A stretch of DNA of 63,441 nt, the filler included, from Reclinomonas americana ATCC 50394 (lineage: Eukaryota): assembly GCA_048213135.1 (NCBI GenBank). It is 5 parts of 3 records of this genome, joined end to end, with 100 filler letters (N's around TTAATTAATTAA, not from the genome) between each part and the next. Parts side by side here need not be neighbours in the genome. Positions count along the whole stretch, not along the records: positions 25,781 to 50,902 come from PS015517.1; 4 more parts are not named here. One strand, 5' to 3'. This document shows, in pieces, positions 24,745 through 63,352 of this stretch. A model generated the notes under the pieces. The model was given only the letters and a program-made list of their open reading frames with translations. It was not told the origin of the DNA and ran no database searches. Both the position numbers and the translations under genes were made by a program. Position 1 is the first letter of the stretch, and each line of letters opens with the position of its first letter.

Positions 24745-26301
24745 ATGACTGCGGCTCCGCTAAAGGCCTCGGCGGATCCCTTTGATTTCTATCACACCCG
24801 CTCCGCCGCCACCTTCACGTACGTCAAGCCGCTGGAGAGCAAGCCGGTGGCGAAGCGCTCAGGCTACTCGGCCAACGAACCAGGGCCACAAGATCCCACC
24901 TCGTATGTGAGCGATGCACGTGTGCCGAGCATGCCCTCGAGGTGCGTGTGTGCAATCTGCCCTCGACAGTCGTGAGTGTCACACTGCTCATTGCGCGCAT
25001 GTGTGCAGGCCGGCGCCAACAGTGAATCCACTCATCGACCTGGTCAGCGAGGCCACTGTGCGCGCACAGTCCACAGCGCATGCGGCATATGCGTGAGTCC
25101 ATCCTTGCTTCTCACACTTCTCGTCCACTCTGCTCACTCTTTCTCTCAAATCCGCTCTGCTGCAGTCCACGCACGGCCGTGGTGAGTTATACAGATGCAC
25201 TCTTCCATCGCACACACTCGTTCTCATCCCACGTCTCGCGCACGTAGGCAAGACACGCTCCGGTGTACGACAACACCGGCTACTCACTGGAGACGATGAA
25301 GCAGCCGTACGGCGATCGGACAAGGAGCATCATGCGACCGTGGGGTGCACCAGAGCCCGTGCTTGTCAAGATGAAGAAGAGCGATCCCATTGAATCGGAG
25401 AACGCTGGCAAGGTGCGTCGCCTCGCCTCACGGACGCTCTCACCTCGTTGCGCCTCTTCTCATCCCCCTCTCCTGCAGGGTCCGTCACCAATGTCCACCA
25501 CATTCGGCACACACTTCCTTGCCGACCAACCACTCATTCGCCGTCGCCACTCGGAGAGTCCGACACGACGCACGAAAGCCACCGACATGACCGCCAGTGG
25601 ATATGCCTCGTTTCGTACCGCATGCAGATCAACTCCCTCTTCTCCACCCCCAGCACTTCTCACATCGACCACAGAAACTCNNNNNNNNNNNNNNNNNNNN
25701 NNNNNNNNNNNNNNNNNNNNNNNNTTAATTAATTAANNNNNNNNNNNNNNNNNNNNNNNNNNNNNNNNNNNNNNNNNNNNGTCACTGGCGCCCCTGGGCT
25801 CGCCCGCGGGAACCATGCGCACCTCGTATCAGGAGTCGTTCGTCAATCCGCGAGACAAGTCGCCCACCGGACGCGTGACCCCAGGCTCCCTCCGCAGCAC
25901 CCGTCCAACTGCATACTCGCGCCTCCGTTCACATTCGTGGGATCGGAGCCGCCCACTGTCGGTGAGGCGGCACCATCCTCCACAAGCTCGCCCCTTCTCC
26001 CCTCTTTCCTCACATCCTCGCCATCCACAGATCCCAGCGAGCTGCACCCGTCGGTGCTGAAGCGCATCCGATGGAAGAGCCCGGTCGAGTACGCCACCAT
26101 TGTGAACCCGAATCCGTTCACCACTCTCAACGCCACCACCTACACCATGCCCAAGGAGCAGCAGCCGCGTGAGCCTCTCACCGGCTCAGTGTCGCCAGTG
26201 AAGAACCGACGCGGACCAATGTCCGGCTTCTCCAGCAACACTGGCGGCCTGGATCTGACCGCTGGCGCCCACTCGCCGGCCGGCGCCATGCTCAGCACGG
26301 C
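24745..26301 (+). CDS. PPP1R32: SAXO4/PPP1R32-like ciliary microtubule inner protein (3' end lost in a gap)
   Basis: Motifs DPFDFYHTRSAATF, SGYSAN and KKSDPIESENAGK|GPSPMSTTFGTHF resemble recalled PPP1R32 motifs (DPLKFYATSY, TGYKSN, DPLERENFRHGPRFMTSEY). Repeated T(S/T)Y and SGF/SGY motifs and LHPSV are also present. Many short GT-AG introns. Confidence 0.65.
25681..25780. other. Artificial scaffolding linker N44-TTAATTAATTAA-N44 (also at 50903-51002, 54096-54195 and 58934-59033)
   Basis: An identical 12-mer carrying stops in all six frames sits at the centre of 100-nt gaps four times. Confidence 0.95.
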
Positions 26302-29398: not shown

Positions 29399-31756
29399 TC
29401 ACTTTGCAAACCAGTTCACCACCTCGCGCACCGCCATGCTGCCGTGTTCAGTGAGTGCAAGTTTGCCTGCAATTGTGTGGTGTGGATCGAGTCAGTCAAC
29501 CTTCTGACCCACGCCCTGCGCTGCGCATGCGCCACTCACCCTGCTGGTTCACTGTCTTCAACACCACAAAGAACAAGTCCTCCTGCGTCGACACCACCGC
29601 CGGCACCAGTGCTGCACGCGCCGCTGGCACAAGGGACGCCACGTGCGCTTCGTCCACCAGGAGAACCAGCGTCGATCGTCCGTCCATGAGGTTCACTGTG
29701 CGTCGTTGTCAGCACACAGACAGACAGCCACCCTGTCGCGAAGGCACTCAAGCTCACCGTTCTTCTCAGCTGCGACACTTGCAATCATCGCAGCGTCAAT
29801 GGCACCACGGCCGACAACATCTTGCACCAGCACCACGCCGACAGCCGGACCGGCACCGGCTGCACCGCCGCTCCAGTCCCAGCCAACGCTGCTGCCGTGC
29901 CGCATGGCAAGCTGCACCTTGACGGCATCGAACGCAGGCGACGATTGACCAGCTGCGGCGCCGTTGATCACCTTTACGGAGGGGAACACGCGTCGCTCAC
30001 GATCAGCGGCACCGCCGGCTCGTGCCACGAAGAGCGGAACTGCTGGCATTGACGGAGCCGGCTCGACAACCACTCGCGCTTGTCGTGCTCGGTCGCGCGC
30101 CGCCAGCTCCAAAAGACCGCGCTTGCACTCACCCAGTCGTTCGAGCATGCTCTTGTCGCGGTTGTCTGCCGACGGCCGTCCGAGAAGCTCTTCCTGGAAT
30201 TCAACACTGGCCACAACGATGTCGTGGTGTAGATATCGAAGGAGGTAATCCACGCGCGTTGTCATATCTGCGCCTGGTTCTGCCTCACCGCAACCGTACG
30301 CCATTTCGCACAGATTGACTGCTCCCTCCACCCGTGGCACCCAGCTCGTTTCCGCTTCCGCCCTCACTCGGGCAAGCTCCTTACCCGCTGCTTGAAGTGT
30401 CTCTCGCAGCGTTTGCTCGAGCTCGCAGTTGTCGTGGACGCCGGAGTCCTGGTCAGCGGTGCATGACCGCCAACGATTGAGATCCACGTCCGCGTAAAAG
30501 TCGAGGCGAATCAGCCGCTCCATTACACACAGGAGCACAGCGCCACGCTCCTCCAGTACTTTTTTGTTCTTGGCGGCTGCGTCTTCGAGCACCTGCTTGT
30601 CCTTGTTGAGCTGTTCCACTGTGCTGCGGAGTGTGGTGACGCGCTCGTCCAAGGTCTTGCACTCTGCTTGTGTCTCCACGAGCAGACGCCGCTGCTCCGC
30701 TCGTGCAGCCTCCTCCTCCGCCATCTCCACGGCTGCGGCAAGTTGCGTCTCCAACGTGACCACCTGTGCCTTCAGTCGCTCGATACAGTCGTCCGCTGCC
30801 GCGACCCCACCACAAAGCTCCAAATGCTGCGCTTGCAGCTGCTCGTTGATGCATTGCATGTTGTGAAGGTCGATCGTGAGTAACTTGATGGTGTTCTCGG
30901 CATCGTCTAGTTGCTTCTCGTGTTGTTGGCGCATGGTCTCCAGACACTTGTCGCTCTCCTCCGCAACTGTAATCACTTTCGTGCCGAGTTCAACGTAGTC
31001 GAGCCGCAGTTGTTGCAGTTCAAGTTGCAGTCGGTCACGATCATCACGGAGGCCGTCAAATTCGGATTTCAGCCTGTCTCTCTCGCCTGTCAACTTGTCC
31101 ATCGTCTCCTGCAACTCGACACGGAGGTCGTCAACGGCAACCGCCAGTTCGTCTCTCTCGTGTTGTGCTGCGAGTCGCATCCGATACTCCTCATCTGGTG
31201 ACTGCTGGGGCGGCTCACGAACAAGAATGCGATTGACCTGACACTTGAGCTGCTCGTCGTCGACTACGTCGTGCGCCGCACTTACTCGCCACTCGTGATG
31301 ACCAGCCTGATCGACCACATAGAACTGCGCGCACAGTAGCACATCAGCGTCTCGTTCAAGGGGCTGCAGACAAGCCAGCACACATGCACACACACACCCC
31401 GATGTGATAATCTCCAAACTCCAAATTTAACTTGACTTGCCAGCGCTGCTTTCCTGGCACGTACCGCAGCTTCTTGACCCCTTCAACTTGATCACACTCG
31501 TACTCTACGACAGGCCTCACTGATGCCCACGCTCCTGTCGTGGCCTTTTTGAAAAATGCGAACACTGTGTCGGAAGAATGCTTGTCATCATCAGCCACCA
31601 CCATGACAGATGACAGGCTAACGTACCTTTGCTGAGTGCCAAACCCGGCTCTCCGCGCTTAGGCGTGTAAATCGCTTTGACTATCATTTGCAAACGCTCG
31701 CTAAGTGGGCAACAGACAACAAATTGTATGCTGTCCGTCCTGTCAATGCCTGACAT
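29399..31756 (-). CDS. Long coiled-coil protein with a small beta-rich N-terminal domain and an alpha/beta C-terminal domain
   Basis: A 574-aa ORF (29693-31417) with heptad periodicity. Upstream exons …ALSK|VFAFFKK… use a GTACGT donor. Downstream exons join via GTGAGC (about 29757) and GTGAGT (about 29539) donors to …AVREVVNWFAK* at 29399. The start could be 31756 or 31687. Confidence 0.7.
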
Positions 31757-31846: not shown

Positions 31847-34800
31847 CTACTCTTCCGGATCCGATTGGTGTGGTGGCTCAACTGATGGCGAACGGGTGGC
31901 AACTCACTCTCTCCTAACCTGAACATACTCCCTGTCTGTCTGTCTCTCTCCCCTCAACCCACTCCGACACCCTCTCCATCTCGCCCTTCTCCCTCTCCCC
32001 CACCCCCGTGACAGACAAACCGCAAAAGATTATATTGTAAGTAATCGCATAACTTGCAAAATCGCTTCCACCTCTCCGCTGCGTCAACCGTGTGCCGTGC
32101 CGATCGTAACCTCCTGCACACACTCCATCATGAGTGCACAACAAACACACCCACGCACACCTCGCACGACTCCCACACTGAACCTTGGTGCCACCCAGCG
32201 TGTCGTCTTGCACGCCATTGACATAGAACGGCACGTTCGCCACCGCAGCATTGTTGCACGAGTCCAGCACGTACATGTACAGGCTGCGTGCAGAACGCAT
32301 GTCAGCGGACAGACAAGAGTGTGTGAGGGAGAAAGAGAAAAAGAAAGAGGAGAGAGAAATGTTGCCCCCGTATAGTGCCAAGTATCCACGATAGAGCACA
32401 TCATTGGCTTGGTATGGAGTGAATAAGAGCAGATTGATCTTGGCCATCTAGGTCGCTGATAACCGCACTGAAGAACGGCTGCCAGCTGATGAGAGGCCGC
32501 AGGAAAAGGGCAAAGGAAGAGTGGAGAAAATGGAATGCGAAGTGCACAAGCGAGCGTGTCAGCTTCTCCAGATTGAACAGGGAGCAGAGAGAAATAGCAT
32601 GAAGGAGAGAGAGAGAGAGGAGTAGGATGACTGCATATGTGCGAGGGCAAGAGAGAGCACTGCAATCTTTCGCTCGCAGTGTAGTGCCGCGCAAAAGGAG
32701 AGAGAGAGAGACAGCACTACAATTTTCACAGGGAGAGTGTGATGGACGACGGCGGCAACATGGCGTGCACAAGACAAGAGACAGCACTGCAGTTTCCACG
32801 AAGAGTAAGAAGACAAAGTGACATGCATAAGACAGTAAAGAGCACAGGGAGAGTGAGAACGATGAGTGCAACTTGACATGCAAAAGAGACAGCACTGCTA
32901 TGCCACATGAAACGTATGAAGGCAAAGTGACATGCAAAAGACAATAAACAGCACTACTATCGCCACAAGGAGAGTGCGAAGGAAGATGACTGCAACATGG
33001 CATGCACAAGACAAGAGACAGCACTTCAATTTCCACATGAAGAGTATGAAGGCAAAGTGATATGCACAAGACAATAAACAGCACTACTACCTCCACAGAG
33101 AGAGTGAGAACGATGAGTGCAACGTGATATGTGAAAGACAATAGACAGCCGTGCAATGTTGTGCAATGAGAACGCTTGTAAAGTGGAATGCAAAGCGCAG
33201 AAGTCTGCCTATCATTCGCCTTCACTCCACAGCGACAAAGAAAACTGATCTGTTTTCAAGCCACTCTCCGCTGCTTTCAATATTTCAGCACTCCTCTAAA
33301 TCAGCGCACTAGTACCTCCCTGCAACAATTTCTTTCAACTTTTGTTCCCTCGCGCATGTGCCAGTGCATGCGTCCCATCATAATGTGCACCACCTTTCTG
33401 GTCCTCTAACTGCATTCGCTCATGTTCTTCTGCTTTTCCTGCTTCACTACATTGCACCGTTCGCTCTCTCTCTCCCCCTTCTCCTTCTCCTTTCCCTCCT
33501 CCCTTCCCTCCTCTCTTCCCTACTCCCTCCCTCCTCCCTTTCCCCTCTCCTTTTCCCCGTTTCTCACCGATACTTCCACGGCCGCGACGGCACCAAGAAC
33601 GTCACACGGTGATGATTGTCCTCGCCCACCGGCACGACAGTGAAATCGTCGGGCCACTTTGACACGGCCGTATCGTCGCCGTGCGAACCGTCGGTGCGCA
33701 CCTGCCACGAGAAGCGCAGCGGACCGCAGCGCACATCGAACGAGTCGACCCATCCGTCGACTGTGTGCTGCGACAGCGGGTCGACCTTGTTGCGCGCCAG
33801 TGTGGGTGCCGTGATCGGCACATACCACAGCACGGGCGCTGATGTCCACGTGCCGGCAAACTCCCACGGAAGCTTCTGATCCTCGAGCCACAGAGAGCGG
33901 ATGGCGTCGAGAGGCTGCGTGCGCGGGTAGCCGCTGGCGATTTCCGGTGCAATCAGTCCCGAGTACCACGTAAAGGTGGCCATGTTGTCGTAGTACGCAT
34001 CCCTGTTGTGGGAGAGTGAGGTGAGCAGGTGGAGACACGGCAGACAAAGGCTGGGGGAGGAAACACACTGACACACTGACACACTGACACAGAGGGGCAC
34101 ACCAACACACTCTCTCTTTCTCTCTCACCAGATAAAGTGGAATGAGCCGAGAATTCTGGCGTCGAAACGTGTCGTCTGGTACGTTCTCCAAGCCTACAGG
34201 AGTTGTGGTGAGGAGAGTGGACAAGTGCTGAACGCACACATCTGTGGTCACACACCCATTCGGCCTTGTCGCGCGAGCTGCCTTCAATCGGGGATCCCCA
34301 AGTGGTCTACACGTCACAAGGAAACATGGTCAGTTAGCGATGCGAAGGGATAACTGCAGGTGGCACGCTTGGCACTCAACAAAGTCGGTCTCGCCGCCCC
34401 ACCAACCGGGCACGCCAACTACGCGAAACCAATAGATGAGTGGTGCAGAAAGAGAGTCTGGCGACGAGAGGCGACGTGTACGAAACACTCGGTGAGAATG
34501 TAGGCACCCTCGTAGCCCCACGCATCGAGCGTGAACAGCAAGTCGGGAGCGAGGCCGAAGGCACTGAGCACATTGTTGCGTGAGCGGAAAACTACGACGA
34601 TGCGTGGCGACAAATGGAACGAAACTTGCGACCGATAATGTCAACATGCGCAAGTGAATCCTGTACACACGCACGCCATGTAAGCAGGTGAGCAAATATG
34701 TAGCCTTGTCGCTCTCCGTGCCCCGCTTCTCACTCCTCTCTAACAAATCACTCCTACTTCATTCCCTATCTTCTGCTTTCAATAAACGTTCTCGCTCTCC

Positions 34801-37800
34801 TCTCTCTCTCTCTCTCATCCTCACTCTCCCATTGTCTCCTCCGCAAGGAATCCATTCCCTTTTCCACTCTCTCCTTTCACCTCCCAACAAACGTTCTCGC
34901 TCTCCTCCCTTCTCTTATCCTCGCCCTCCCATTATCTCCTCTCCACTCTGTCCTTTCCGCTATCAACCAAACATTCCCTCGCTCACTCTCCTTCTCTCTC
35001 GTCGTCTCTTCTCCAAGGAATCCCTTCCCTCTTCCACTCTCTCCTTTCCCCAACCAACTTGCCTTCAGCTCTGGTGTCACCGTCGCAATGACCGTTGACG
35101 TAAGCGTCACGTGCGACGGGTCCTCGGCCTTGACCATGGCAGCCAGACGCTCCACGGCCTTGAAGACACGACTGTGCTCCGAATGATCGGTCCACAGCTC
35201 CATCTGCAACAACGGAGTGAGTGCTTTTGTACTTGGAAAGACGTCTATGCATGGAATGCCATCAAACCTCATTGCCAACGTTCCACGCCAGCAGCTACGC
35301 GACAGGGTGTTAGAATCCACACATGGCAAACAACGCTGTGAGTGACTCCAACACAACTGCTGGGTGGTACTTCCAGCGCTTGACGACACCAATGGCCAGC
35401 TCGTCTTGCTGATCCTCGTACGGGCTTCCGGTGGTGTCTGCACAAGGTGAATGAGTTGCTGAGTACTTGCCACATAAAAAGCCGAGAACACGGGTGCCAC
35501 GCAACAGTTGAAGGCAGGGAACCGATCGGGAATCTTCTCCGGTTGCATCTTCAAGCCAATGACCACAGAGAGGCCGAAACTCTGCGCAATGTCGAGAATG
35601 TTCGGCGTGCCAGCCAGCTGGTCCGGATCGTACAGACGAATGGTGTTGCCACCGGAACTGCAATGAAAGAGGGATGATGAGCTCCACAAACACAGCTCAT
35701 TATCGTCTCTGATAACCCTCTGCTCCACTGAGCTCGCATTCCCTTGCTCGTTTGCTTGTGATATCTCCCTTCTCCCTTACCCTCTCCCCTCCCTTTCCCC
35801 TCCCTCACCGAGACAAATAATCGAGGGCCACTGGATTGTCGGTGACGGCACCATAAATGCGGAACGGCTGCTCGCACCGATACAACGTCCACGTGGTGCG
35901 TCCAAACTTGTCGGGCGCGCCCTTCTCCAGTCTCGAGTTGACGCGGCAGCCACCTACGCACACATCGAACTCGCCGCAGGCTCGCTCGCACTTGTCGCCA
36001 AACCAGCCGGCATTGCACTGGCACTTGGTGGGACTGAGCGCGCCGAGACCGCACGAACCATTGCCGTTCTGCACGTGGTTGCTGTCAGGGCAATGCGAGG
36101 CGCAGAGGCAAACGAGATAAAACACACGCAACGCATTGGACTTTCGGATCGCACTTGGAGCTGGCGCTGATGTCGCCGCCGGGTGGCACATAGTCGACGC
36201 CACCCACCGGCAGCAATCGGAACGCACGGTCCACGTACTGCAGACACGCACACGCCATCTTCAGCAGTCTTGCAAAAAAAAAAAACCGAAAGCTTGGCGC
36301 CCTCGTCACACACGCACCATTCCATTGCCCTTGTCGGTGCCTCGAATGACGAGTTGCAGGGGAACGCGATTGGCCGGCGGCATAAAGACTGAAATCAGAT
36401 TGCCGTTGGGGCCACTGAGCACCACAGAGTTGGCCGGAGACTGACTCTGAATGGTGAATGTGTGCTGATCGCCAGGCTCGTCCACTGCAGTGAGTTTGCC
36501 AATGATGGAGTCCTTGACGGCCGGGTACTGTGCGGAAAAGAACATCCATGTCAGTCAGCGTGTGTGCCACAGAATGCATCTCATGCCGATCCCTTCACTG
36601 CTACTCACCCAATACTCGACTGTCGACAGCAAAATATCCGTGGGCGCATTGTTGACTGCAGCCATGCAAAGTGAGTAAGTAATCCCAGCTCTCTCTCTCT
36701 CTCTCTCTCTCTCACAGATTCCGGCCCTAACGAAACTCGGAATGGCAAACTGCTTCTCGATAGTGAAGCTGGCGCTGTCGGTGCACCGCACACGAATGTG
36801 CAGCGGCGATTGGCGACCGCTGCTCAGCCACTGGCCGGCGGCGGCATGCACCGTGGTGTCGGACACCTGGAACAAATTGTTGTCGTTGCTGCCGTCGCCG
36901 CCCACGAGAGCGCACAGGAAGGTGTCGAAGAAATTCGGGTCCACCGGAATCAGACTGCCGACGATCGAGCCGCCGGCAATGGGCAACGGCAGTGGGCGCG
37001 GATAGGAGAGCAACTTGAGGCGCAAATCCAGTGGCGCAGTCGGAGTGGTGGTGTTGGTCAGCGGCAGCTCCTTGATGGTCAGGATCTTGTCGAGACGGCC
37101 ACCACCATTGTCGATGGTGGCACGGAAGTTGATCGACAAGTCACCGAACGGCGGCTGATCAATGATCAACGAGGTATTGTCTTGCGGCGAGAGCTTGACG
37201 GCGGTCTCGGGGAACTGGCCACGAATGGTGAATGTTGCCGTGTCGGTGGGAGCCAGTCCAACAGCCGTGAGCGAGCCGACAAAGAAACCGGCAGGCGGAT
37301 TGATGGGGTACGTGGTTGGCTTGACAGTGATGTCGGTCGGCGTCTTGCGACCCGACAACGTGGGGTCGATGAACGGGAGCGACAGTGCCTGCTCCAACCA
37401 CAGACCATCGCGGTCAGTCACGCGCACGCGCAGCTGCATCGGCGACGTGATGGAGCCAGACGGGATGCCAGTGCCGCCAGTGACCGTCACAAAGAGACCG
37501 TCGCTGTCCACAATGAACAGGCTGTTGTGCGTCGAACCGGCACCGGAAGCCAGTGAGTAGGTGAACTTCTCGTTCGAGTTGGCGTCGGTGGTGGTGAGGC
37601 CGAGGAGGCGCTGGCCAGGCAACAGCGGAAGCTGCAGCGGTGGGTCGTCAATGGCGTAGACCATTGCGGCGGGTGCGGTGGGTGCTGTGCGAGAAGAATG
37701 AGTTGGTGAATGAAGCAGGCGCGAGAATGGATGACAGACCTTCGCCCACGAGGAAGTCGGCCTCGCCGACGGCCCCGTTGGCATCGGTGACACGCACTCG

Positions 37801-40800
37801 CAGGCCGACGCGGCCGGCGACGGCGCGTGCAACCGTGAGCGCGCCAGTAGTGTTGGAAATCGCAAACGCGCCGACAGGACGCTGGTACAGGATGCGATAG
37901 AGGTACGGAGCCTTGCTGGCGTTGGTGACCGACACGGAGCCGATCTGCGCGCCGGCAGTGGCCGGCACCGGGTACGTGCCAGCACCACTCAGCAGCAGCG
38001 TGAGTGTGTTGGACGTCGGCTTGGTGGTGTCGTCGAACAGAATGACAAACGACTTGTTGATGATGGCGCCGGTGGAGGTCTTGGTGGCCTGAATCGTCAC
38101 CGAACCCTGCATCGGGAACGGGGCCGCGGACAGATTGCTGACCATCAGCTGGGTTGAGGCCAGCGAGAAGAGGTTGCCGGGCGTCTGTGACAGCAGCGTA
38201 AAGGTGTACGCCAGGCCGGCGCTGCCGGACACCGACACGAAGCCAATGACGGACTTGTCGGCGATCGGCACGGCGATTTCGCTGACCGACAGCGCCACCG
38301 TCTCTCCCGCCGAGGAGTCGACTGAGTGAGGAGGACAAGTGAGTGAGGATGAAAAAGGAAAGGATGGTCCGAGGTTGGAGAACTCACCGACAGCCACCAG
38401 GAACGACCGCGTGACGGCGGCACCGGTCAGCGGATCCGACGCCTGCACCGTGAGCTGCACCGTCAGGGTGCCACTCGGCGGCGCCTTTTGCACCTCCACA
38501 GTGTTGCCGTTAAGGCGCAGCACGTCGGCCGGTGTCTGCGACACAATGCTCAGCTTGTCCGTGGCAACGTCGACGGCGTCGTCGACAATGGTGAGGGTGC
38601 CGAGGGAGAGGGTCGAAGCTGCCGGCAGCGGGATGGTGATGGGGTCCAGGACGCCGGTGATGTCGCGGGGAGGGTTGTTTACTGAAGGGGAAGGGGGAAG
38701 GAGGTGAGAGGGGAAGGGGAATAGGGGAACGAAAAGGGGAAGGAGAATAGGGGAAGGGATAAGGAGAAGGGAAAAGGGAAAGGGAGAAGGGGGAAGGGGG
38801 AAGGGAGGTGAGAGGGGAAGGGGAAAAGGGGAAGTGAAAGGGGAAGGGAAAAGGGGAAGGGAGAAGGGAAAGGGAGAAGGGGAAGGGAGAGGAAGGGAAA
38901 GGGAAAATGATAAGGGGAAGGGAAAAGGATAAGGGGAAGGGAAAAGAATAAGGGGAAGGGAAAAGGGGAAGGGAAAAGGATAAGGGGAAGGGAAAAGGGG
39001 AAGGGAAAAGGGGAAGGGAAAGGGAGAAGGGAAAGGGATAGGGAGAAGGGAAAGGGATAGGGAGAAGGGGAAGGGAAAAGGGGAAGGGAAAAGGAGAAGG
39101 GAAAAGGGGGAAGGGGGAAGGGAGGTGAGAGGGGAAAGGAGATAAAAAGCAATGGAGAGAACAGAACAGGCGACACTTTAACGAGAAGAGAATGAGCCAG
39201 AAGAGGAGAAGAGAGCAACTGGAGAGCACGTGCTTTCCAACGTAATGTACACGTGAAGGAGAAAGAAAAATGAAGAAAGCACAGCAAGCGATGAGAAAGT
39301 ATCACAATAAATTGAGAGCGAGAAAAGAGATAAATAAATGGGAAGAGAAGGGCGAGGAGCAATAGAAGAGAGAAGAGTGACACAAGAGAGCACAAGAGAG
39401 CAGAGCTGACAAGTGCTATGCAAGCGAGAAAGGAAGGCGAAGAGAGGTCATTTCAACAAGAACGAACTACAGGAGCGAGGGGAACGGAGTAAATAAGAAG
39501 AAAAGGAAGGGATCATACTTAAAAACGCAGTTGAAGAAACAATGCAAAGAGTGTCCAAGTCACCAAGTACGAATAACACAAGCGAACGGGATGGAAAAGT
39601 CCGTAAACAAGAAAAGAAAAGAGTGACTCTCAGAGCGCGAAGAGCACAGCTTGCAGGTGTGTTGCGTACTCGTGAAAACAAAGAGTAGAGTCCAGGTTGG
39701 CAAGTAGAGAGGAACAGCATAGAAGGAGGACGTCATAATGAATGGAAAGAAAACAGAATGAATGTTGACAAGCAAGAAAGGATTGACAGCTGTGTTATGC
39801 ACCGGGGGAAATCGTGAGAACGAAAGTCGGAAGCAACAAGGAAAGAACAGCAGATAAGCGAAGGGATATGAAGAGTCGTCGCCCTTGAGCGAGATCGGTG
39901 AATTGTCTCTTCATCACCGATGCACTCACCTCCCACAACAAACAGCATGCGCGAGGTGACAGTGGTGCCGCTGATGCTGGCCTGCACCGTCACCGACAGC
40001 GTCGAGACAACTTGCGGGGGGAGACCACCGCTGGCCACCACTAGTTTGTTGCCCTGGCCAATGGCGAAGAAGCTGGGCGAATCCTGCACGGTGAACAGCA
40101 CGGCGCTGGCCGGTGCACCCGTGTCGACGGTCAGCGTGCCGACCAGAGCGCCAGCAGAGGCCGGAAGCACCATGCGTGTGGTGGCCAAGGTGATTTGCAG
40201 GTTGGCCAGAGTGCCTGCGACAAGCGACAAGTGATGAGAAAGCTTGTCATGTAACGCAATTGACGGTGAAATTCACGCACCAATCGGCAACACAAACGAC
40301 CGCTCGACAAACTGCATGCGCAGCGACTCAATGGCTCGCACCGTTACCGTAATCGGCGACGCGATGCTGCTCAGGGCACCGACCACCACCAGCTTGTTGC
40401 CGGATAGGGAAACTGAGCCAGTCGGCTGTTGCGACACGAGCTGGAAGGAGATGTTGCTGGTCACGTCAGAGACCAGAGTGCAGGCTGTCGCACCGCTCGG
40501 CAGCGGCGAGGGGATCATCGTCTCCTGGCAGTTGACGCGAGTGGGGGCGGGAGGGGCTGTGTGGAGGGGGAAGAAAGGGGGAGGTGAGACAAGAGGGAAC
40601 AAAGGGAAATGGAAGCAACAAAAGGCAAGGAGAAGGGACAGAAATGGAGAGACAAGACGGCAAGGAAAGAGAACGAGAGACAAAGGGCGTGGGAAGAGAT
40701 GGCGAGACAAGCGGGACAGTGACGTGAAAAGAACCCAAATGGTAAGGGATGAGAACGAGAGGCAAGAGAAGAGGAAGAGATTTGGAGAGACAAGAGGGAA

Positions 40801-43610
40801 ACGAGAGACAAAGGGCATGGGAAGAGATGGTGAGACAGGCGGGAAAAGTGACGAGAAGAGAACCCAAATGGTAAGGGAGGAGAACGAGAGGCAAGAGAAA
40901 AGGAAGAGGTTTGGAGATGACAGGAAAAAGGTAGAGAAGCGACAAAGGGCATGGGGAAGGGAAAGAGATGGAGAGACAGGGGAGAAATGGACGAGAAGAG
41001 AAACCAAATGGAAAGGACAGAGATCGAAAAGGAAAAGATGTTGAGATAAGAGGGAAAGAGTAGAGATGCAAAAAAGAGAAAAGAGAGGGAAGGAGACAAA
41101 ACGGATAAAAAGAGGAGCAACAAATTGATGTGTGCTTGCAAGATAGAAATCGAAGAGACGGAAACGACCAACTATCTGCAGTGAACAAGAGAGCACAACA
41201 CGGAATGTATCTGGAGGCCATGAGAAAGGGGCGTGAGTGAGAAGGGGACGGAAAAGTTTGGGCAAATGCGACCGCTATCATGAAAGCATGAGATTTGAAT
41301 GAGCAGTCACAATGCGACCGCATTGAGATACAAGTGAGAAAGCGAAAGCAGGAGAAAGTGTTTGAAGAGTCTGAGCAGCTTTGGCATCATGGAGGAAGCA
41401 AGGTATAACTAAGATGAAAGCAGACCCTGACAACAACACAGAAATTGTAAAATCCCGCAAGACGAGGCATAAGCAAGATAGTCTCGAAAGAGCAAAATCG
41501 ACATCGTGAACGACGGATAGAGAGAGAGAGAGAACGAAAGAAAAACGGACATGAAGACATGCAGAAGAAGGAGAATGAATGCATATTCCCCTTTCCCTTC
41601 CTCCCTCTCCCCTTTCCACCCTTCCCCTTCGCCCCCTCCGGCCCACTCACCCGACACCACCGGCAACGACAGAGTCTTGTTGAAGTAGGCCTTGGTCACC
41701 GTGTCCGTGGCACGCACCACCACCGACACCGATTGCACACCGTTGGGTGTGCCCGACAGAATGAGCGAGTTGCCCGACAGGCTCACAATGCCCGCCGGCG
41801 TCTGCGACACGAGCGACAAGAGCAGCGCGTTTTGCACTGCCGCCGCGGGCACGGCCGTCAATTGCGCCACCACCGACTGCAAGGTGATTGGCAGGTAGAG
41901 CGACGGCGTCGCCGGTGTCGTCACAATGTCGATGGGCGGCAGCGAAACTGTGCGTGCAAAATTAATCAAAGAAAGAGCGCGATTGGTAAGTGGGTGTACG
42001 GCACCTTGCAGCTGCACCGTGCCCTGTGCCGAGGTGCCCGTGCTGGTGGCCACCGCCGAGATTGTCACCGAGATAATCGGTTGCGCGCTCTGGAGAATAC
42101 CGGCCGCGCCAACAATCAGCTGGGACCCGCTAATGACGAACGGGCTGTTCGTGGTGCCCAAGGTGAACACGACGGGTCCAGTGAGCGAGGACGACAACGA
42201 GCCGACCACCGTCTGCGGCGCCAGTGGGAGCGGCAACGGCGAGCCGGCAGTCGCCACGAAGCGAATCGTGAGGGAGGGGAAGATGGTGAAGTTCTGTGCG
42301 TGCAATCACGTGAGACGAAGAAGACATGGCAAAATATGGTCTCATTACGCACTCCAACGATGCTCATGTTGGTGGAGCGCTCGGTGGCCTGGATGACCAG
42401 CGTCACCGACGTGGAGAGCACACTGGCCGCCTGCAGTACGTTGCCAGACACCAACTGCACCGAGTTGGGCGGCGTCTGTGACATGATCGAGAAGCCGACG
42501 GGGTCGACGCCGGGGTCGTTGTCGACGAGGATGGTGGTGAGGGTGGAGCCGACGGGCGCCGGTGACGTGAACTGTGTCGCAGTCAGGCGCAGGTTGGTCA
42601 GCGGCTTGTTGACGGGGATCGTCAGCGGTGCCTCCCAAGAGGAGCCGGCTGTGTGTGTGTGGTCAAGAAAACAGTCTTCGTCAGCACGCAGAAGGTGGGG
42701 AAAAAATGGAAGAGGCGGAACCGCAACTGCCGTCAGTGACCCGCACGCGAATGCTAAAGTAGCTGGCCGTCGGCACTCCACATTGCACGCAGTAGACCCA
42801 CTGATTGAGGTAGACGGCAAAGGAGGCGTTGTCTTGACTGCCGGCGCCGCTCACGAGTTGCACGTCGGTCAGCGGTGCAGTGGCGTCGGTGAGGATCCAC
42901 CCGGCCACCGAGTAGGAGCGTGGCACGGGGAGGCGGTCGAACCACATGTTGTAGGTGATGCTGCGGGAGGTAAGAAGGGAAGGAGAGGGGGAAGGGAAAG
43001 GGATGGGGAAGGGAGGTAAGAAGGGAAAGGAATGGGGAAGGGAGGTAAGAAGGGAAAGGGATGGGGAATGGAGGTAAGAAGGGAAAGGGGGAAGAGGAAG
43101 GGAGGTAAGAAGGGAAAGGGATGGAGAAAGAGAAGAAAGGTAAAGGATGCAGGAGGGGATACGAGTAATAGAATATGGCAAAGATTACTGAAGGGAGCGG
43201 AAAAAGAATCAGAGACGACGGCCAAGGACACCAAGAAACTAGGAGAGGGCAAAGAAAGGAAACAAGATGAGATATGAAAGAGAGAGAGAATCGAGATTGC
43301 AGGTTTTCTGTGGGAGAATGCACCACTGAGAGAAAAAGGAGAAAGGAATAGGGAGGAGATCGAGACGCAGGAGAGTACGGAGGAACATAATGTATACAGA
43401 GGGTTCAGAGTCCGCGCCATGAGGCAAATGTGGAATGTGCTAGATGTTGAAGGACAAGGGGGAAGGGAGCAACATGGCAAATATGCGTGCTAGAGCGAAT
43501 ACTTTGTGTGCAACGTCCACAAGCGAGGAGAAGAGTAGAGAGTCGAAGAGAGAGATGACCCACGAACGCACACGGGCATATACACACACAGTAAGAGATC
43601 AGAATGAGAA

Positions 43611-43647
<37 letters not shown>

Positions 43648-44266
43648 ATACATAGAAGTCTGCCCGCGAGGAGAGTACAGGAGAGACAACTGGCGGATGC
43701 AGAGACAAAGGCAGAGACAGAGACTGAGAGTAAGAGAGACAAACAGGCGGACAACCCGAAGGAGAACGGGGGAAAACAGAAGAGGACACACACATGCACA
43801 CACACACACACACACGCACACACACACACAGAGAGAGAGAGAGAGCGACATAGATGAACGCACACGCAACCCAAAGAGGGTGAGTGTGAGAGAAACTCTT
43901 GATACAGAGAAACAGCGACTGTTGCACCGTGGTCACACAAACACACAGAGTGTGAGACGAGACAGGATAGGCACCAGCGACACGCATAAAGAGCACAAAA
44001 GGGAGCGCCAGAGAGACAAAAAAAGAGAAAAAGTGCAAAAAATGCAACGTCTCTCTGGCCACCAAAAAATTGAATGCACTCAACTCACAAACACACACAC
44101 ACAAGAGAGAGAGACTCTCTCCTCACACACACATAGCAACACTTGTGAAAGAGCACATGCGAAGGGAATCACGCAACATCTTTCCACCAAACGCCACCGA
44201 GGCCATCATCACCAGCAGACACGAGGCACATAACAGCAGCAAGAGCTGCCGCCGTGGCACCATCAT
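31847..44266 (-). CDS. Secreted multidomain protein: signal peptide + about 12 bacterial-type cadherin-like repeats + EGF-like module + clan GH-A (GH2-/GH157-like) glycoside hydrolase + Ig-like C-terminal domain
   Basis: Signal peptide MMVPRRQLLLLLCASCLLVMMASVAF. Repeats such as NNAPTDILLS and TTDANSNEKFTYSLASGAGSTHNSLF…LRVRVTDRDG. EGF-like GNGSC…KCQCNAGWFGDKCE. Spliced catalytic domain GGNTIRLY…KYHPA|LLAWNVGNE|…AEDPSH…YILTE|FGVPGWW…|TTWGSPIEGSSRDKA…TFTWYSGL…PWKYR|LYMYVLDSCNNAAVANVPFYV. Probable stop at 31847. Confidence 0.85.
32640..33165. repeat. Intronic tandem repeat, about 59-bp monomer arranged as an about 118-bp dimer
   Basis: Recurrent gacagcact…ccaca..gagagtg…tgacatgcacaagaca units (about 8-9 monomers) inside the 32284-33567 intron. 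Confidence 0.8.
38685..39140. repeat. Intronic polypurine (GGGAA/GGGGAAGGGAAA) tract
   Basis: About 450 nt that are almost purely G/A on the + strand, i.e. a pyrimidine tract upstream of the acceptor on the coding strand. Confidence 0.9.
40675..40960. repeat. Intronic tandem duplication, about 130 bp
   Basis: gagacaaagggc.tgggaagagatgg.gagaca…gaacccaaatggtaaggga.gagaacgagaggcaagagaa.aggaagag.tttggaga occurs twice, plus a partial third copy. Confidence 0.8.
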
Positions 44267-47407: not shown

Positions 47408-50400
47408 TCAGTCATACTCCTCGAATCCGTAATCTTCAGCACCACCCCAATCGCCCTCGCCGTCATACGGCGCACCGTACCCAACGTCACCATCTCCCTC
47501 CTCCTCATCCTCGTCCTCCCCAAACGCCTCCTCCTGCTCGTCGGCATAGTCGTCATCGTCCTCCTCCTCGAATCCCGTCGTGTCCATCGGTGCCACAGCA
47601 GTCGTGTCACCAACTCGACCACCTTGCACCGTGCGCTCGGATGCGACAGCACCAGCAGTGCGTTTTGCGCTCTTGCGAGGCGGACGAAGACGCAACTTGC
47701 GCCACAACGGGAGTGGGCGCTTTTTCGGCTCACGCACGTGCGGAACGGGCGGGACCGACGATGGAGCAGCAGTCGTAGTAGTTACAGATACCGCAGTTGG
47801 AGCTGCTGCCGTCGCTGTAGGCTCAGCGGGCTCATCTCCACTGGCATCACTGGCAAATGGATCGTCATCATCGTCGTCCCTTCCATCATCGTCGTCATCG
47901 TAATTGCCGTCACCATCGTCGTCCTCCATCTCACGCTCCAGTTCCACGTGATGCACCACCAGGGCGCGCAGTTTGGCCAGGTCGAGAACCTGGCCCTCCT
48001 CGGCGGGCTGCAGATGGAGAAGGGGGGAAGAGAAGGGGATAAGAGGGAGAAGGGGGGAGGAGAAGTGGATAAGAGGGAGAAGGGGGGAGGAGAAGGGGAA
48101 AGAGGGAGAAGGGGAAGCGGAGAATAAGGAAAGAGAGGGGGAAAGAGAAGGAGAGGAGAAAGTGAAAAGAAAGGGAAAGCGGGAGGTAAGCAGGGAGACG
48201 AGGAAGAGTCGACGGGGGAGATGAAGGAATAGATGGAGAGAGATGACGGGATAAATGAAAGGAGTGAAGAAGAGATGAGGCGAGAGAGAGAGCAGAAGGG
48301 AGAAAACAACGAAAGAGAAGATGGGAGATGACAAAGAAAATACCGGGGGAAAGGGGGTTGACGGAAAAGAACTGGGGGATAGACAGGGGAAGGAGGCGGG
48401 GGAGGAAACAGTGGACAGAGATGGGAAGGAGCAGAGAAATAGAACAAGGAGGGAAGGGGATGATCACGGAATCGCAAAAGATCTGGGAGGAGAAGGGGAC
48501 GGAGAAGGGGAAGGAGAAGGGGACGATGAAGGAGGAGATGAATGGAGAGATGATGGAAATGATGAAGAAGAAAGGAGTGTAGAAGAGCGAGGTGCGAGAA
48601 GAAGGGAAAGGTGAAGGGAAAGGAGGAGGGAAAGATGAAGAGAGATGACGGGAGAGATGAAGGGGTATAAGAGAAGAGATAAAGAGATGAAAGAATAAAA
48701 GGAGATGCAGGCAGATGGAGAAAGGGAGGGGAAAAGGAGGAGAAGGGAGAAAAGTTGGCAGGAACAGAGAGAAGGGAAAGTGACAATGAGAGAGAGAAAG
48801 AGAGATTCGCGCAACTTGCTTGGCGAGCAGAATTCTCTGCATCTCTTCCGCAGACACCGTGCTCGACAAATCCTCGCTCTTGTCCTCCTCCCGCGCCGTG
48901 GCGGGGTCCGTGAGCGCCAACAGCGCCTCCTCCGAGAACCCATCCAAAATCAGCGTCCGCGGAACGCCGGACAGCAGCAGTCGCACATACGACTGCAAGT
49001 GCTTGTCCAAGCGCAGAATGCGATCACCATTGTCACCTCCGACTGCGGTAATTCTGCGCAGCACTTGTTCCGCCTCCTCGAGTAGTGCAGCTCGACGACG
49101 ACGCCGAGCTTCCTCCTTGCGCAAGTACTTCGGTTGATCCAGCGACTCGAGCAGGTCGCGCTGACGCCGTCGGAGTCGGCGAGGAGGTGGGGGAGGATGC
49201 GGAACAGGAGCAGGTGTGCTTTCGGCGGTGGTGGCGACAGTCGTCGTGGAAGTGATTTGTTCCTCTCTCGATTTCTGCTCCGCCTGTCGCTGTGCGAGTT
49301 GCTGCAGCATCTCGTAGTGGCGCAGAATGAACTGCACGCGCTCGCAGCCGACGGTGGAGGGGATGTCGCGGCCGCTGATGGTTTTGTAGACGGGGAGGGT
49401 GCGACCGACGGCGGCCTGTGAGAGGGGGAGGGGAATGAGGGAGAGGGAGGGGAAGGGAGTAGGAGGGGAAAGGAGAAGGAAGCAGACAAGGAGGAGGAGA
49501 GAGAGCAAATGACGGACAAGAACATAGCAAACTGATGGAGGCACACGAGAGGGGAAGAGATATGGGGCATAATGAGATGCAGTGTGGTGATTGGAAAACG
49601 AGAGAAGAGCTGGAGGACAGGGGAGAGAGCGACGAAAAGAACACATGGATGGAATCAAGGCACTGGACGGCAGAAAGCGTGAGAAATGTGGCAAGACAGG
49701 AGGGCTAGTGTCTACAAGCGAGATGAAGGGACAGTGGAAAGGAACAATTTACATAAAGAATCAATCAGCGATGGAAGGAAGCTGAGATTCAGCAACGAGT
49801 GCACCCAAAACAGAAACGTACACAGGAATGGTGATCATGGGAGGTCTGACAAACGAAGGGAGAGGAGACACTGTCGTACATCGACTTGATCGCGTAGACT
49901 GCAGATAAAGAAACAGCTCAAGAAAAAAAGCAAAGAATGCACCCATTACAGCAAAGGAGAGCATGTGATCGTGAAAGACTGTTGCGGAAAAGACGAGAAC
50001 AATGAGAAAAGATCGGCCAAATGGTATCCGGTGTCAACCTCCATGCGGCCACCACAGAAACCAAGACAGTGAATCACAGATCCTCTTGATCACCTCCCCC
50101 CTTGTCCCCTTTCCCCTCTTCCCCCCTTTCCTCACCACCGCCTCCTTCAGCTCCGTCACCCGCTCGGACATTTGACTGTAGCCGCGGCCCACCAACTCCG
50201 ACACGGTCTTGCACACCTGCGTCTGCGTCTGCACTCCCGGCACCGCACCCGTCACGTGCACGGCAAAGGCCAGCGACGCCGACGCCACAGTGAGTGGATG
50301 GCGGCCGGAATCCAAGCCGCGATCCATGGCCACTCGCAGCACCTGGCGCGCCATTTTGATCACCGCCGTCAGCTTGGCCGCCGACTCGACCACACGACCG

Positions 50401-50809
50401 AGGCGACTGGCCATGCGCGATACGTGGCCGGCCAGGTTGACGTCGGGCAGTTGTCGCTTTAGCTTCCCACACACCTGGCGCACGGCGTCGGCCAGCACCG
50501 GAATCTCCACGTCCAACGCCCGTGCGCATTCGCTAATGGTCAGCGGTTCTTCCGAGCCACGTCGGAGAATGTAGATGCAGGCGAGGGCGCAGACTTGCAC
50601 GGTGCGACGGCGGGTCCAGCATTTGTCTGGCAGGGGGAGGAGTTGTGGGTGGAGGGGGAAGGGAGAGAGGGACGAGAGGAAGCGAACCTACACAGTGGTA
50701 CACCATGAACTGGACTTCGGCGCGCGATGCCTCGGCATGCAGGCGATTGCAGACGTCGCCAATGCTCTCCATGGCCGCGCGACGGGCGTACTTTTGGGCT
50801 TTGTTTTGA
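47408..50809 (-). CDS. TFIIB-family (BRF-like, TFIIIB subunit) factor; N-terminal Zn ribbon not visible (gap)
   Basis: Two cyclin-fold repeats with TFIIB/BRF motifs: RRTVQVCALACIYILRR..EPLTISECA and GLDSGRHPLTVASASLAFA. Acidic C-terminal tail ending …FEEYD* at 47408. Confidence 0.7.
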
Positions 50810-61797: not shown

Positions 61798-63100
61798 NNN
61801 NNNNNNNNNNNNNNNNNNNNNNNNNNNNNNNNNNNNNNNNNNNNNNNNNNNNNNNNNNNNNNNNNNNNNNNNNNNNNNNNNNNNNNNNNNNNNNNNNNNN
61901 NNNNNNNNNNNNNNNNNNNNNNNNNNNNNNNNNNNNNNNNNNNNNNNNNNNNNNNNNNNNNNNTGTGCGCAGATTGAGGCTCCAGTCCTCCACGTCGCGC
62001 AAGTTCTGCTCCACAAACTCCTCCAGATTGACGCTGCCAAACGACACGTATGGTGCGAAGCGCTCCTTCTCCTTGGACAACTTGGCGAACAGCTGCTCGG
62101 CCTTGGCGTAAACGGCGATAATGTAGCGCTGGTTGCGGCCAATCATGCGACGCAGCAGCGTGTTGTCGCCTGTGAAGCTGGGGAAGGTGGCCGGCAGCGA
62201 GATGAACTCGTTCATCTGGCGGTAGTACGTCTCACGAATGTTCTCGTACGAGGGGCGGTACTGCAGGCGGCCTTCGGTGAAGGTGAGATCCACGTTGATG
62301 TCGCGGAGAGTCTCGTTGAGGGTCAGCAGGCCGAGCTTGTACTGTGTGGGGAAGGATTGAGGATCAAAATGACAGGGGGAAATCAACCGATGTGTCACCA
62401 CGCACCTGGAACTCGAGGGCTTTGTACAGTTGGCACTCCCAGTGCCGAACCCAGTCGTCCATGAACTTGTAGCCTTGGTGGCTGAGCTTCTCGAACGTGT
62501 CGCGGATTTCGCGGCAACCGTCGCGCCACTTTTGTGCCTCGCGCACGAGACTTGTCGACATGAGCTCCACCAGCTTCTCGCCGACCAACACGTGGTACTT
62601 GCGGAGCTTGCGGCTGGCGCCGTTGAGGCGGTCGTGAGCCTGTGGGAAGGCGGAAACGGGAAAGGGGAAGGGGGAAGGAAGGGGAAAGGGGAAAGGGGGA
62701 AGGGGGAGCAAGGGAAAGGGGGAAAGGGAAGGGATGAAGGGATGGGAAGGGAGAGGGAAGGGAGGGAAGGGAGAGAGGGAGGCAGGCAGGGGAGAGAGAG
62801 AGGAGGGCGAGGGAGGAGGGAGAGGGAGAGGCAGATACGAATTCAGCACAACAAGCGACCGACTGCGACAAGCAGAAACCATTGAATCACCTCCTTCAGG
62901 AATCGCATGTACTCGTTCTCGCGACCGACATCGTTCCAGGTGGCACGTGTGGCACCGCGACGCTTGGTACCGCTGTTGCACACATCGACGAACTCTTGAA
63001 TGTCGGTGTCGAGCATCTTGCGCTGGCTCGGCACGAGTTGTTGCTCCATGGTGTTGTATGAGTTGCACACTTGTTTCAGCACCTTGGCGCTGGAGTAGAA
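59063..63100 (-). CDS. DYNC2H1: Cytoplasmic dynein 2 (IFT retrograde motor) heavy chain, internal fragment (tail to AAA1)
   Basis: [108 protein letters not shown], and [14 protein letters not shown] in the tail. Exons such as 62891-63100 and 62406-62639 splice canonically. Confidence 0.93.
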
Positions 63101-63352
63101 CTGTGGACAGAAGAGTGAGGGGGATGTGGGGAAGGGGGATGTGGGGAAAGTAGGAGGAGGGGAGGAAAGGTCTCTCGATCGCTCTCTCTCCCCTTTGCTC
63201 TTTCTTTCTCATGTGCCCAGCGTAGAGTCCAACAGGGATCATCCGAGAAAAAGAGAGAGAAAATAGGAAGGATGGAAAGAGAGACCAAGCAGACATGCAC
63301 ACATGCAGACAGACAGACAGTATTAGCAACATAGAAACCAGCAGAGATCATG

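Follow-up and report, generated by a model that had tools for sequence, protein, structure and literature searches.

A gene on the minus strand of a 63,441-nt stretch of DNA from Reclinomonas americana ATCC 50394 (assembly GCA_048213135.1; five joined parts, hereafter the window) is predicted to encode a protein of 1813 amino acids (aa), in which a signal peptide, 13 cadherin-fold repeats, an epidermal growth factor (EGF)-like module and a catalytic module of glycoside hydrolase (GH) family 158 follow one another. Judged by sequence comparison, the enzyme belongs to GH158 and apparently represents an undescribed eukaryotic branch of this family. We give slightly better than an even chance to the whole reading that one gene encodes one secreted glycoprotein, which would serve as a retaining beta-1,3-glucanase of GH158 descent for food. 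The coordinates of its features are collected in Table 1.

The family assignment is carried by comparison with bacterial relatives. Scanning bacterial and archaeal genomes for a motif retrieved at least 111 loci, 80 of them with flanks, and yielded 74 near-complete domains; this set was selected by a C-terminal motif and is therefore biased to one part of GH158. All 74 domains align end to end with the spliced module (25-33% identity), which keeps 57 of the 81 columns that are highly conserved (in 90% or more of the domains). A profile made from 16 bacterial relatives matches the module over profile positions 1-389 at E 5e-71, so that the TIM-barrel hydrolase recognised in the initial annotation is borne out end to end. 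The order of a (beta/alpha)8 barrel followed by an immunoglobulin-like (Ig) domain was judged from collinear alignment across both domains. The same two-part composition and a retaining mechanism have been reported for GH158, the members of which so far characterised act on beta-1,3-glucans (PMC7157763, PMC13195107; here and below, papers cited by PMC number were available in part). In PDB searches, the best bacterial relative (L074) matched GH158(Pro) (9ORO) at E 2.5e-104 and 6PAL at 2.8e-88, versus ~1e-6 for GH2 structures, and none of its 36 PDB matches is labelled GH157. Pieces of the module itself, searched directly, had 9ORO as the sole PDB match (E 0.035 with the read-through of exons 15-18, and E 2.7e-4), and with single exons no match in Pfam or NCBIfam rose above the sub-threshold level. 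The enzyme had initially been likened to Bacteroidota GH2-related ones, which has to be revised on both counts. Membership in GH2 was rejected because the ~1e-6 resemblance is short (~120-150 aa of GH2 barrels in L074; Pfam GH2_C, 8e-9 over 147 aa) and the model lacks the GH2 N-terminal domains, and the GH158 relatives are spread over many phyla, not specifically Bacteroidota.

Fusions to GH17 or GH3 are frequent in long bacterial relatives, and a few of these are fused to GH16 (among the 120 proteins listed out of 259). The bacterial proteins P0047-P0055 carry two tandem GH158-like domains, the named ones coming from Verrucomicrobia and Kiritimatiellae; their first domain is strongly diverged and lacks the WG.K.E motif. 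In other bacterial sequences (P0056, P0058-P0061, P0104, P0148 and L023:5989-8892), GH158-like domains are fused to major facilitator superfamily sugar transporters or to a TonB-dependent receptor.

The active site shows the signature of clan GH-A, namely an Asn-Glu acid/base pair after strand 4 (Asn1489 and Glu1490) and a Glu nucleophile after strand 7 (Glu1574). Both glutamates, which had been read earlier from the motifs WNVGNE and ILTEFG, are intact. Three of the four stacking aromatic residues are also kept (Trp77 being the exception), with Trp1581, Phe1624 and Tyr1639 corresponding to Trp236, Phe278 and Tyr291 of GH158(Pro). Two further motifs previously listed with the hydrolase, WGSPIE and YRLYMYV..D..AAVANVPFYV, are also present, all four motifs occurring in the order given, and the last lies in the C-terminal Ig domain and not in the barrel. 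In the Ig domain, Cys1718 and Cys1780 may form a disulfide. Glu1574 would attack the anomeric carbon while Glu1490 acts as acid/base, as in a retaining clan GH-A endo-glycanase. Specificity for beta-1,3-glucan is likely, and the substrates would most likely be beta-1,3 or mixed-linkage glucans, either laminarin-type storage glucans or prey walls.

Several points weigh against this reading. Conserved glucan-contact residues are replaced, and the beta-glucan substrate put forward in the initial annotation, which agrees with the family, is therefore less certain than was implied. Specifically, Trp77, Lys283 and Glu285 of GH158(Pro) have become Tyr1413, Tyr1629 and Asp1631 (numbering mapped via printed alignments, the paper numbers being chain numbers plus 8), at columns that hold W in 68, K in 70 and E in all of the 74 bacterial relatives. 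Glu285 of GH158(Pro) was reported to contact the -1 glucose at its O4 and O6, and the Glu285Ala mutant to lose 99.8% of the activity (PMC13195107). In addition, identity to bacterial GH158 does not exceed the 25-33% given above, the stem of the branch measures 1.3-1.5 substitutions per site, trees without an outgroup single out no bacterial donor lineage, and there is no anchor to justify tethering of the enzyme.

The replaced residues bear most directly on an alternative that we consider unlikely, although it deserves weight, in which the same protein has altered chemistry: with remodelled -1 and -2 subsites, it would act on another beta-glycan, as a transglycosylase, or as a weak glycan-binding enzyme on an adhesin-like stalk. 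The Lys283Tyr and Glu285Asp sites lie directly 3' of intron 23 and are no splice artefact, because P0017, a probable eukaryotic fragment described below, has both residues in a continuous frame. Since they are common to P0017, they would be an inherited feature of the branch. The protein has Trp77Tyr in addition. Altered chemistry is also favoured by the loss of the WG.K.E motif, which is missing from only 18 of 202 bacterial domains (half of these in tandem two-domain proteins), and by changes in the cleft-capping, tunnel-forming Ig loop, where the GG of the GGD motif is replaced. On the other hand, the register of this loop is ambiguous between alignments, the W-to-Y and E-to-D exchanges are conservative, and both catalytic Glu, the preceding Asn and the three aromatics mentioned are retained. 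The protein does not fit the processive subgroup, which is marked by an Arg104-Asp382 salt bridge across the tunnel and Glu285: it has Asp for Glu285 and Lys1445 in the Arg column, with the loop register ambiguous.

The nearest sequence relatives of both the GH module and the repeats are bacterial in homologue searches, as had been supposed. A search of 1.84 billion representatives with exon 24 gave two matches, P0017 (48%, E 1e-28) and P0018 (48%, E 2e-11), at a threshold below which the bacterial relatives fell and which distant eukaryotic members could also escape. Both are singletons, on Logan contigs of 1.0 and 1.7 kb, and they are probably exons of other eukaryotes, because their similarity stops abruptly into intron-like sequence where the present gene has no intron. 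The model and P0017 were grouped (100/100) in a tree of 56 rows, left after 204 domains had been reduced to <58% identity, and in one of 50 rows from which six divergent first domains had been dropped; in the latter, their neighbours are a compositionally odd Balneolales sequence and another domain (96/87). No single bacterial donor is named here because of the lack of an outgroup and the very long stem; on these comparisons, the donor is not specifically Bacteroidota. Pattern matches from the JGI metagenome and viral contig scans contained no confirmed member of the eukaryotic branch (0 of 135, 0 of 128 and 0 of 104). A word-index search with the natural read-through of exons 15-18 was negative for all 931 candidates, no match of 0.9 or above came from the ESM Atlas, and the four matches from a short-motif scan of viral contigs were due to chance.

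The origin of the module is a separate question, on which an old eukaryotic GH158-like family with vertical descent and frequent loss, in place of lateral gain, appears rather improbable. Such descent would fit the very long stem without a firmly placed bacterial sister, as well as the apparently different intron positions of P0017 and P0018, which are suggested by their read-through tails. It is disfavoured by the yield of the exon 24 search, in which the two Logan singletons were the only matches, and by the JGI metagenome scans, in which no member was found. Moreover, the literature naming GH158 points to no eukaryotic member by its titles and the beginnings of its abstracts, although CAZy taxonomy, subscription papers and bioRxiv supplements could hold some. 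A broad eukaryotic clade with vertical inheritance, which the initial annotation had considered decisive against a bacterial derivation, was not found, the eukaryotic branch being represented, apart from the present gene, by the two fragments only.

According to profiles and structure predictions, the repeats of the stalk (90-106 aa each) have the cadherin fold and are of the bacterial type. Scored with a profile based exclusively on bacterial repeats, each of the 13 outscores all 100 of its own shuffles, with 41-55 bits for R1, R10 and R12 and 9-17 bits for the other ten. Tandem repeats of about 95 aa had been correctly recognised before, while their number, given as about 12, is 13, and the consensus quoted for them fits R1, R10 and R12 well but not the other ten. 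Exon 10 retrieved 14 cadherin-domain proteins (27-38% identity) among 8000 scored candidates; these carry cadherin Pfam families, and those with names are bacterial. AlphaFold was applied to R7, with the gene's own repeats only, and to R10-R12, with a bacterial cadherin alignment (predicted local distance difference test scores of 82 and 81, respectively). Cadherins were the best structural matches of both models (Z 10.8 and root-mean-square deviation 2.5 over 95 residues for R7; E 9e-11 for R10-R12). No significant sequence match of the repeats to solved cadherins was obtained, and the LDRE and DxND calcium motifs are absent from the alignment of the 13 repeats. Six repeats (R2-R6 and R9) contain 0-4 acidic residues, versus a bacterial mean of 10.8. 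Introns occur at seven of the 12 repeat borders, always in phase 1, a phase found for two of 11 introns in the GH part. A repeat tree, which has too few columns to show origin and leaves out animal and protist cadherins, puts 12 of the 13 repeats on one side (SH-like approximate likelihood ratio test, 95) and R1 among bacterial repeats.

A fusion of cadherin repeats with GH158 was not encountered in bacteria. Neither a cadherin Pfam family nor a repeat-profile match was detected in long GH158-like proteins (120 of 259 listed, 728-2075 aa; best E 0.19), no cadherin-like repeat lies within 6 kb of the bacterial GH158 loci (0 of 80, at least 111 loci having matched), and the 14 bacterial-type cadherin proteins contain no GH158 domain. 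An architecture already widespread, which had been named as a possible objection, was thus not seen in the listed relatives or the 80 loci. The lack of a bacterial fusion and the EGF linker favour assembly inside a eukaryote, where the fusion probably arose. The chimera had been thought to be inherited as such from bacteria, an idea that lacks support on the same two grounds and in view of the one-exon-per-domain repeats. Instead, the GH module may have been acquired from bacteria long ago and then joined in a eukaryote, via the EGF linker, to a resident repeat family. No protist protein combining cadherin and glycoside hydrolase parts through horizontal transfer was found in the literature, as judged by its listing.

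The signal peptide predicted earlier was confirmed: in a hydropathy scan over 19 residues it reaches 2.65, and no other part of the protein exceeds 1.7. The EGF-like module, which had also been noted, has six Cys, with Pfam EGF E-values (1e-3 to 3e-3) below the cut-off. No transmembrane (TM) segment or convincing glycosylphosphatidylinositol (GPI) signal was found by the hydropathy scan or among the 3' splice alternatives, in agreement with the earlier statement that no TM anchor was seen, and the tethering proposed there is therefore at most putative. While the sequence establishes the gene structure (through homology), the order of the domains, the fold of the repeats, the family relationship and the catalytic residues, we infer the activity, substrate and location of the enzyme, the role of its stalk, and the direction and age of the transfer. 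A cadherin domain is ~4.5 nm long, and the 13 repeats would form a spacer of ~55-60 nm. The loss of most acidic residues from six repeats probably makes this spacer flexible. Even with no membrane anchor, it may keep the enzyme attached to a surface or to its substrate. It was reported that bacterial cadherin domains bind carbohydrate and each other (PMC12153261, PMC3124978, citing Fraiberg et al.), which by analogy suggests how the protein might be held in place in the absence of an anchor. The site of action would be outside the cell or in food vacuoles.

It is quite improbable, in our view, that the enzyme acts on the organism's own beta-glucan (a vacuolar storage glucan, or a cyst or surface coat) and not on food. 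A signal peptide suits any compartment of the secretory pathway, and beta-1,3-glucan is stored by some flagellates (PMC10161547); however, a stalk of 1270 aa would seem more useful extracellularly, and bacteria-derived carbohydrate-active enzymes (CAZymes) of flagellates have been tied to feeding (PMC10161547). A more far-reaching proposal, which we regard as equally improbable, sees here an undescribed eukaryotic GH158 subfamily that has remodelled its glycone pocket and gained a disulfide, mounted on the same cadherin-fold repeats as the giant surface fibres of the protist. Its stalk would dock on these fibres or on prey, giving an exon-shuffled form of surface-mounted digestion that would functionally resemble bacterial surface glycanases.

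The preferred reading of a single secreted glucanase depends on the gene model, the exon chain of which was built by hand after the minus strand had been read in three frames and candidate splice sites had been listed, with junctions resting on homology and splice signals. On this evidence, the gene is predicted to have the structure given in Table 1. The frame is open throughout, from 44266 down to 32084; the same gene had previously been extended to 31847. Apart from one GC-AG intron, the introns are of the GT-AG type (24), and 18 of the 25 are 55-81 nt long. The GC content at third codon positions (GC3) is ~0.6-0.9 in 25 of the 26 exons. GTT donors (GTTGCG, GTTTCG and similar) follow 9 of 10 non-G exon ends versus 2 of 15 ends in G (p 2e-4), a rule tested only once the model was fixed. 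Each of exons 14-25 supplies conserved GH columns, and the score dropped by 28-54 bits on removal of each of the four frame-neutral ones tested. An alternative GC donor for intron 19 was rejected, as its score with the GH profile was 12 bits lower. The catalytic residues sit in exons of 27 and 77 nt; because of this, the gene is invisible to scans based on open reading frames, as the initial annotation had remarked for the hydrolase. Neither the rest of the window nor the long introns yielded additional cadherin or GH158 pieces. Bacterial contamination was rejected in view of the 25 spliceosomal introns and the eukaryotic genes in the window. Four introns of more than 1 kb are partly lengthened by tandem repeats (32889-33105, 40672-41016, 42991-43128 and 38684-39142), with units of 60, 129, 29 and 6-32 nt, respectively. 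The final intron is ambiguous, and the last 10-20 residues depend on its choice.

It is very improbable that two genes have been joined in the model or that a final exon with a TM or GPI anchor was overlooked. The hand-assembled chain and the ambiguous last intron would allow it, and hydrophobic tails result from a few of the 1473 3' splice combinations enumerated, but these variants depend on weak acceptors and on reading far into intron-like sequence. The donor rule is consistent, and the introns that separate R13, EGF and GH measure 64-151 nt and have ordinary splice signals, so that no gap above 151 nt, and therefore no space for a second promoter, exists between R13 and the GH module.

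Table 1. Features of the cadherin-GH158 gene, in window coordinates
Feature	Position	Strand	Evidence
Whole gene model, 26 exons and 25 introns, 1813 aa	32084..44266	-	Spliced frame; GH-part junctions consistent with homologues
Signal peptide, aa 1-27 (exon 1 extends to 44178)	44186..44266	-	Sequence; hydropathy maximum 2.65
Cadherin-fold repeats R1-R13, aa 28-1293, exons 1-13	36205..44185	-	Profile, structure predictions, introns
Exon 10, repeats R10-R12; R10 and R12 most bacterial-like	36737..37684	-	Homologue search, profile
EGF-like module, aa 1311-1345, interrupted by intron 13	35985..36153	-	Pfam, Cys count
GH158-type catalytic module, (beta/alpha)8 barrel and C-terminal Ig domain, aa 1377-1795, exons 14-25	32211..35891	-	Profile E 5e-71
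Exon 17 (27 nt), Asn1489 and acid/base Glu1490	35268..35294	-	N and E in 74/74 bacterial relatives
GC-AG intron 18, 402 nt	34661..35062	-	Spliced model
Nucleophile Glu1574, end of exon 20	34488..34490	-	E in 74/74 bacterial relatives
Altered subsite loop, Tyr1629 and Asp1631 vs Lys283 and Glu285 of GH158(Pro); same in P0017	33987..33995	-	Alignment
Cys1718, Ig domain; also in P0017 and P0018	33726..33728	-	Alignment
Cys1780, Ig domain; also in P0017	32256..32258	-	Alignment

Several other features were observed in the window. Exons of a dynein-2 (intraflagellar transport) heavy chain lie at ~59260-63350 on the minus strand, with human DYNC2H1 as the best PDB match (E 3e-80, versus 1e-45 for dynein-1), and the host is a eukaryote, which probably has a flagellum. 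An EF-hand protein (21007-21762), a TFIIB-repeat protein (50037-50687, minus strand) and a dual-specificity phosphatase (55468-56247, plus strand) are also encoded. A GC3-rich frame of ~350 aa with a signal peptide (57532-58659, minus strand) has no Pfam match at 1e-3 and weak structural matches to lactonases (E 0.06); it may be a bacterial-type secreted beta-propeller. A coiled-coil-like frame of 577 aa (29693-31426, minus strand) begins a few hundred bases 3' of the cadherin-GH158 stop codon and shows a weak leucine-zipper match. Two 44-N runs around 12 bases occur at each of 25681-25780, 50903-51002, 54096-54195 and 58934-59033 and are probably due to masking or scaffolding.

If the preferred reading of a food glucanase is true, GH158 would be extended to eukaryotes, and a natural variant would become available at Lys283, Glu285 and Trp77, residues recently tied to substrate recognition and processivity. 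It would also point to a route for the digestion of laminarin-type carbon in heterotrophic flagellates and to a cadherin-fold rod paired in a protist with an enzyme rather than with adhesion. Lateral gain of CAZymes by protists is already well known, which lessens the surprise.

Among known systems, GH158(Pro) (PDB 9ORO, PMC13195107) and BuGH158 (PDB 6PAL, PMC7157763) resemble the GH module in the order and length of barrel and Ig domain, the Asn-Glu pair, the second Glu and the three aromatics. In contrast to both, the present protein is eukaryotic, has 11 introns in its GH part, replacements of Lys283, Glu285 and Trp77, a changed GGD loop and an extra Cys pair in the Ig domain, and is preceded by 13 cadherin repeats and an EGF module. 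With regard to lateral gain, Diplonema papillatum is likewise a flagellate with laterally gained secreted polysaccharide hydrolases (PMC10161547); GH158, GH157 and cadherin were not found in seven supplementary files of that study, and the parts of its text covered here describe no such stalked architecture.

The stalk, for its part, can be compared with bacterial cadherin surface proteins (PF00028/PF17803), such as P0005 from Rhodopirellula, P0014 from Microvirga and the P0010 cluster with type IX secretion system tails, which likewise have tandem repeats of ~95 aa behind a signal peptide and whose signature is seen in R1, R10 and R12. CabC and CabD of Saccharophagus have also been named as a bacterial cadherin-domain comparison (PMC12153261, PMC3124978). 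Unlike these surface proteins, the stalk has ten strongly diverged repeats out of 13, six of them acid-poor, an exon-per-domain structure and an attached GH158. Outside animals, eukaryotic cadherins are known from choanoflagellates, Thecamonas and oomycetes (PMC2926784, PMC4265756), and, together with those of animals, they share the cadherin fold and the order of repeats followed by EGF. LDRE and DxND are the calcium motifs that define animal-type cadherins (PMC2926784); the present protein has neither of them and no TM segment or cytoplasmic part, and, unlike eukaryotic cadherins, it carries an enzyme at its end.

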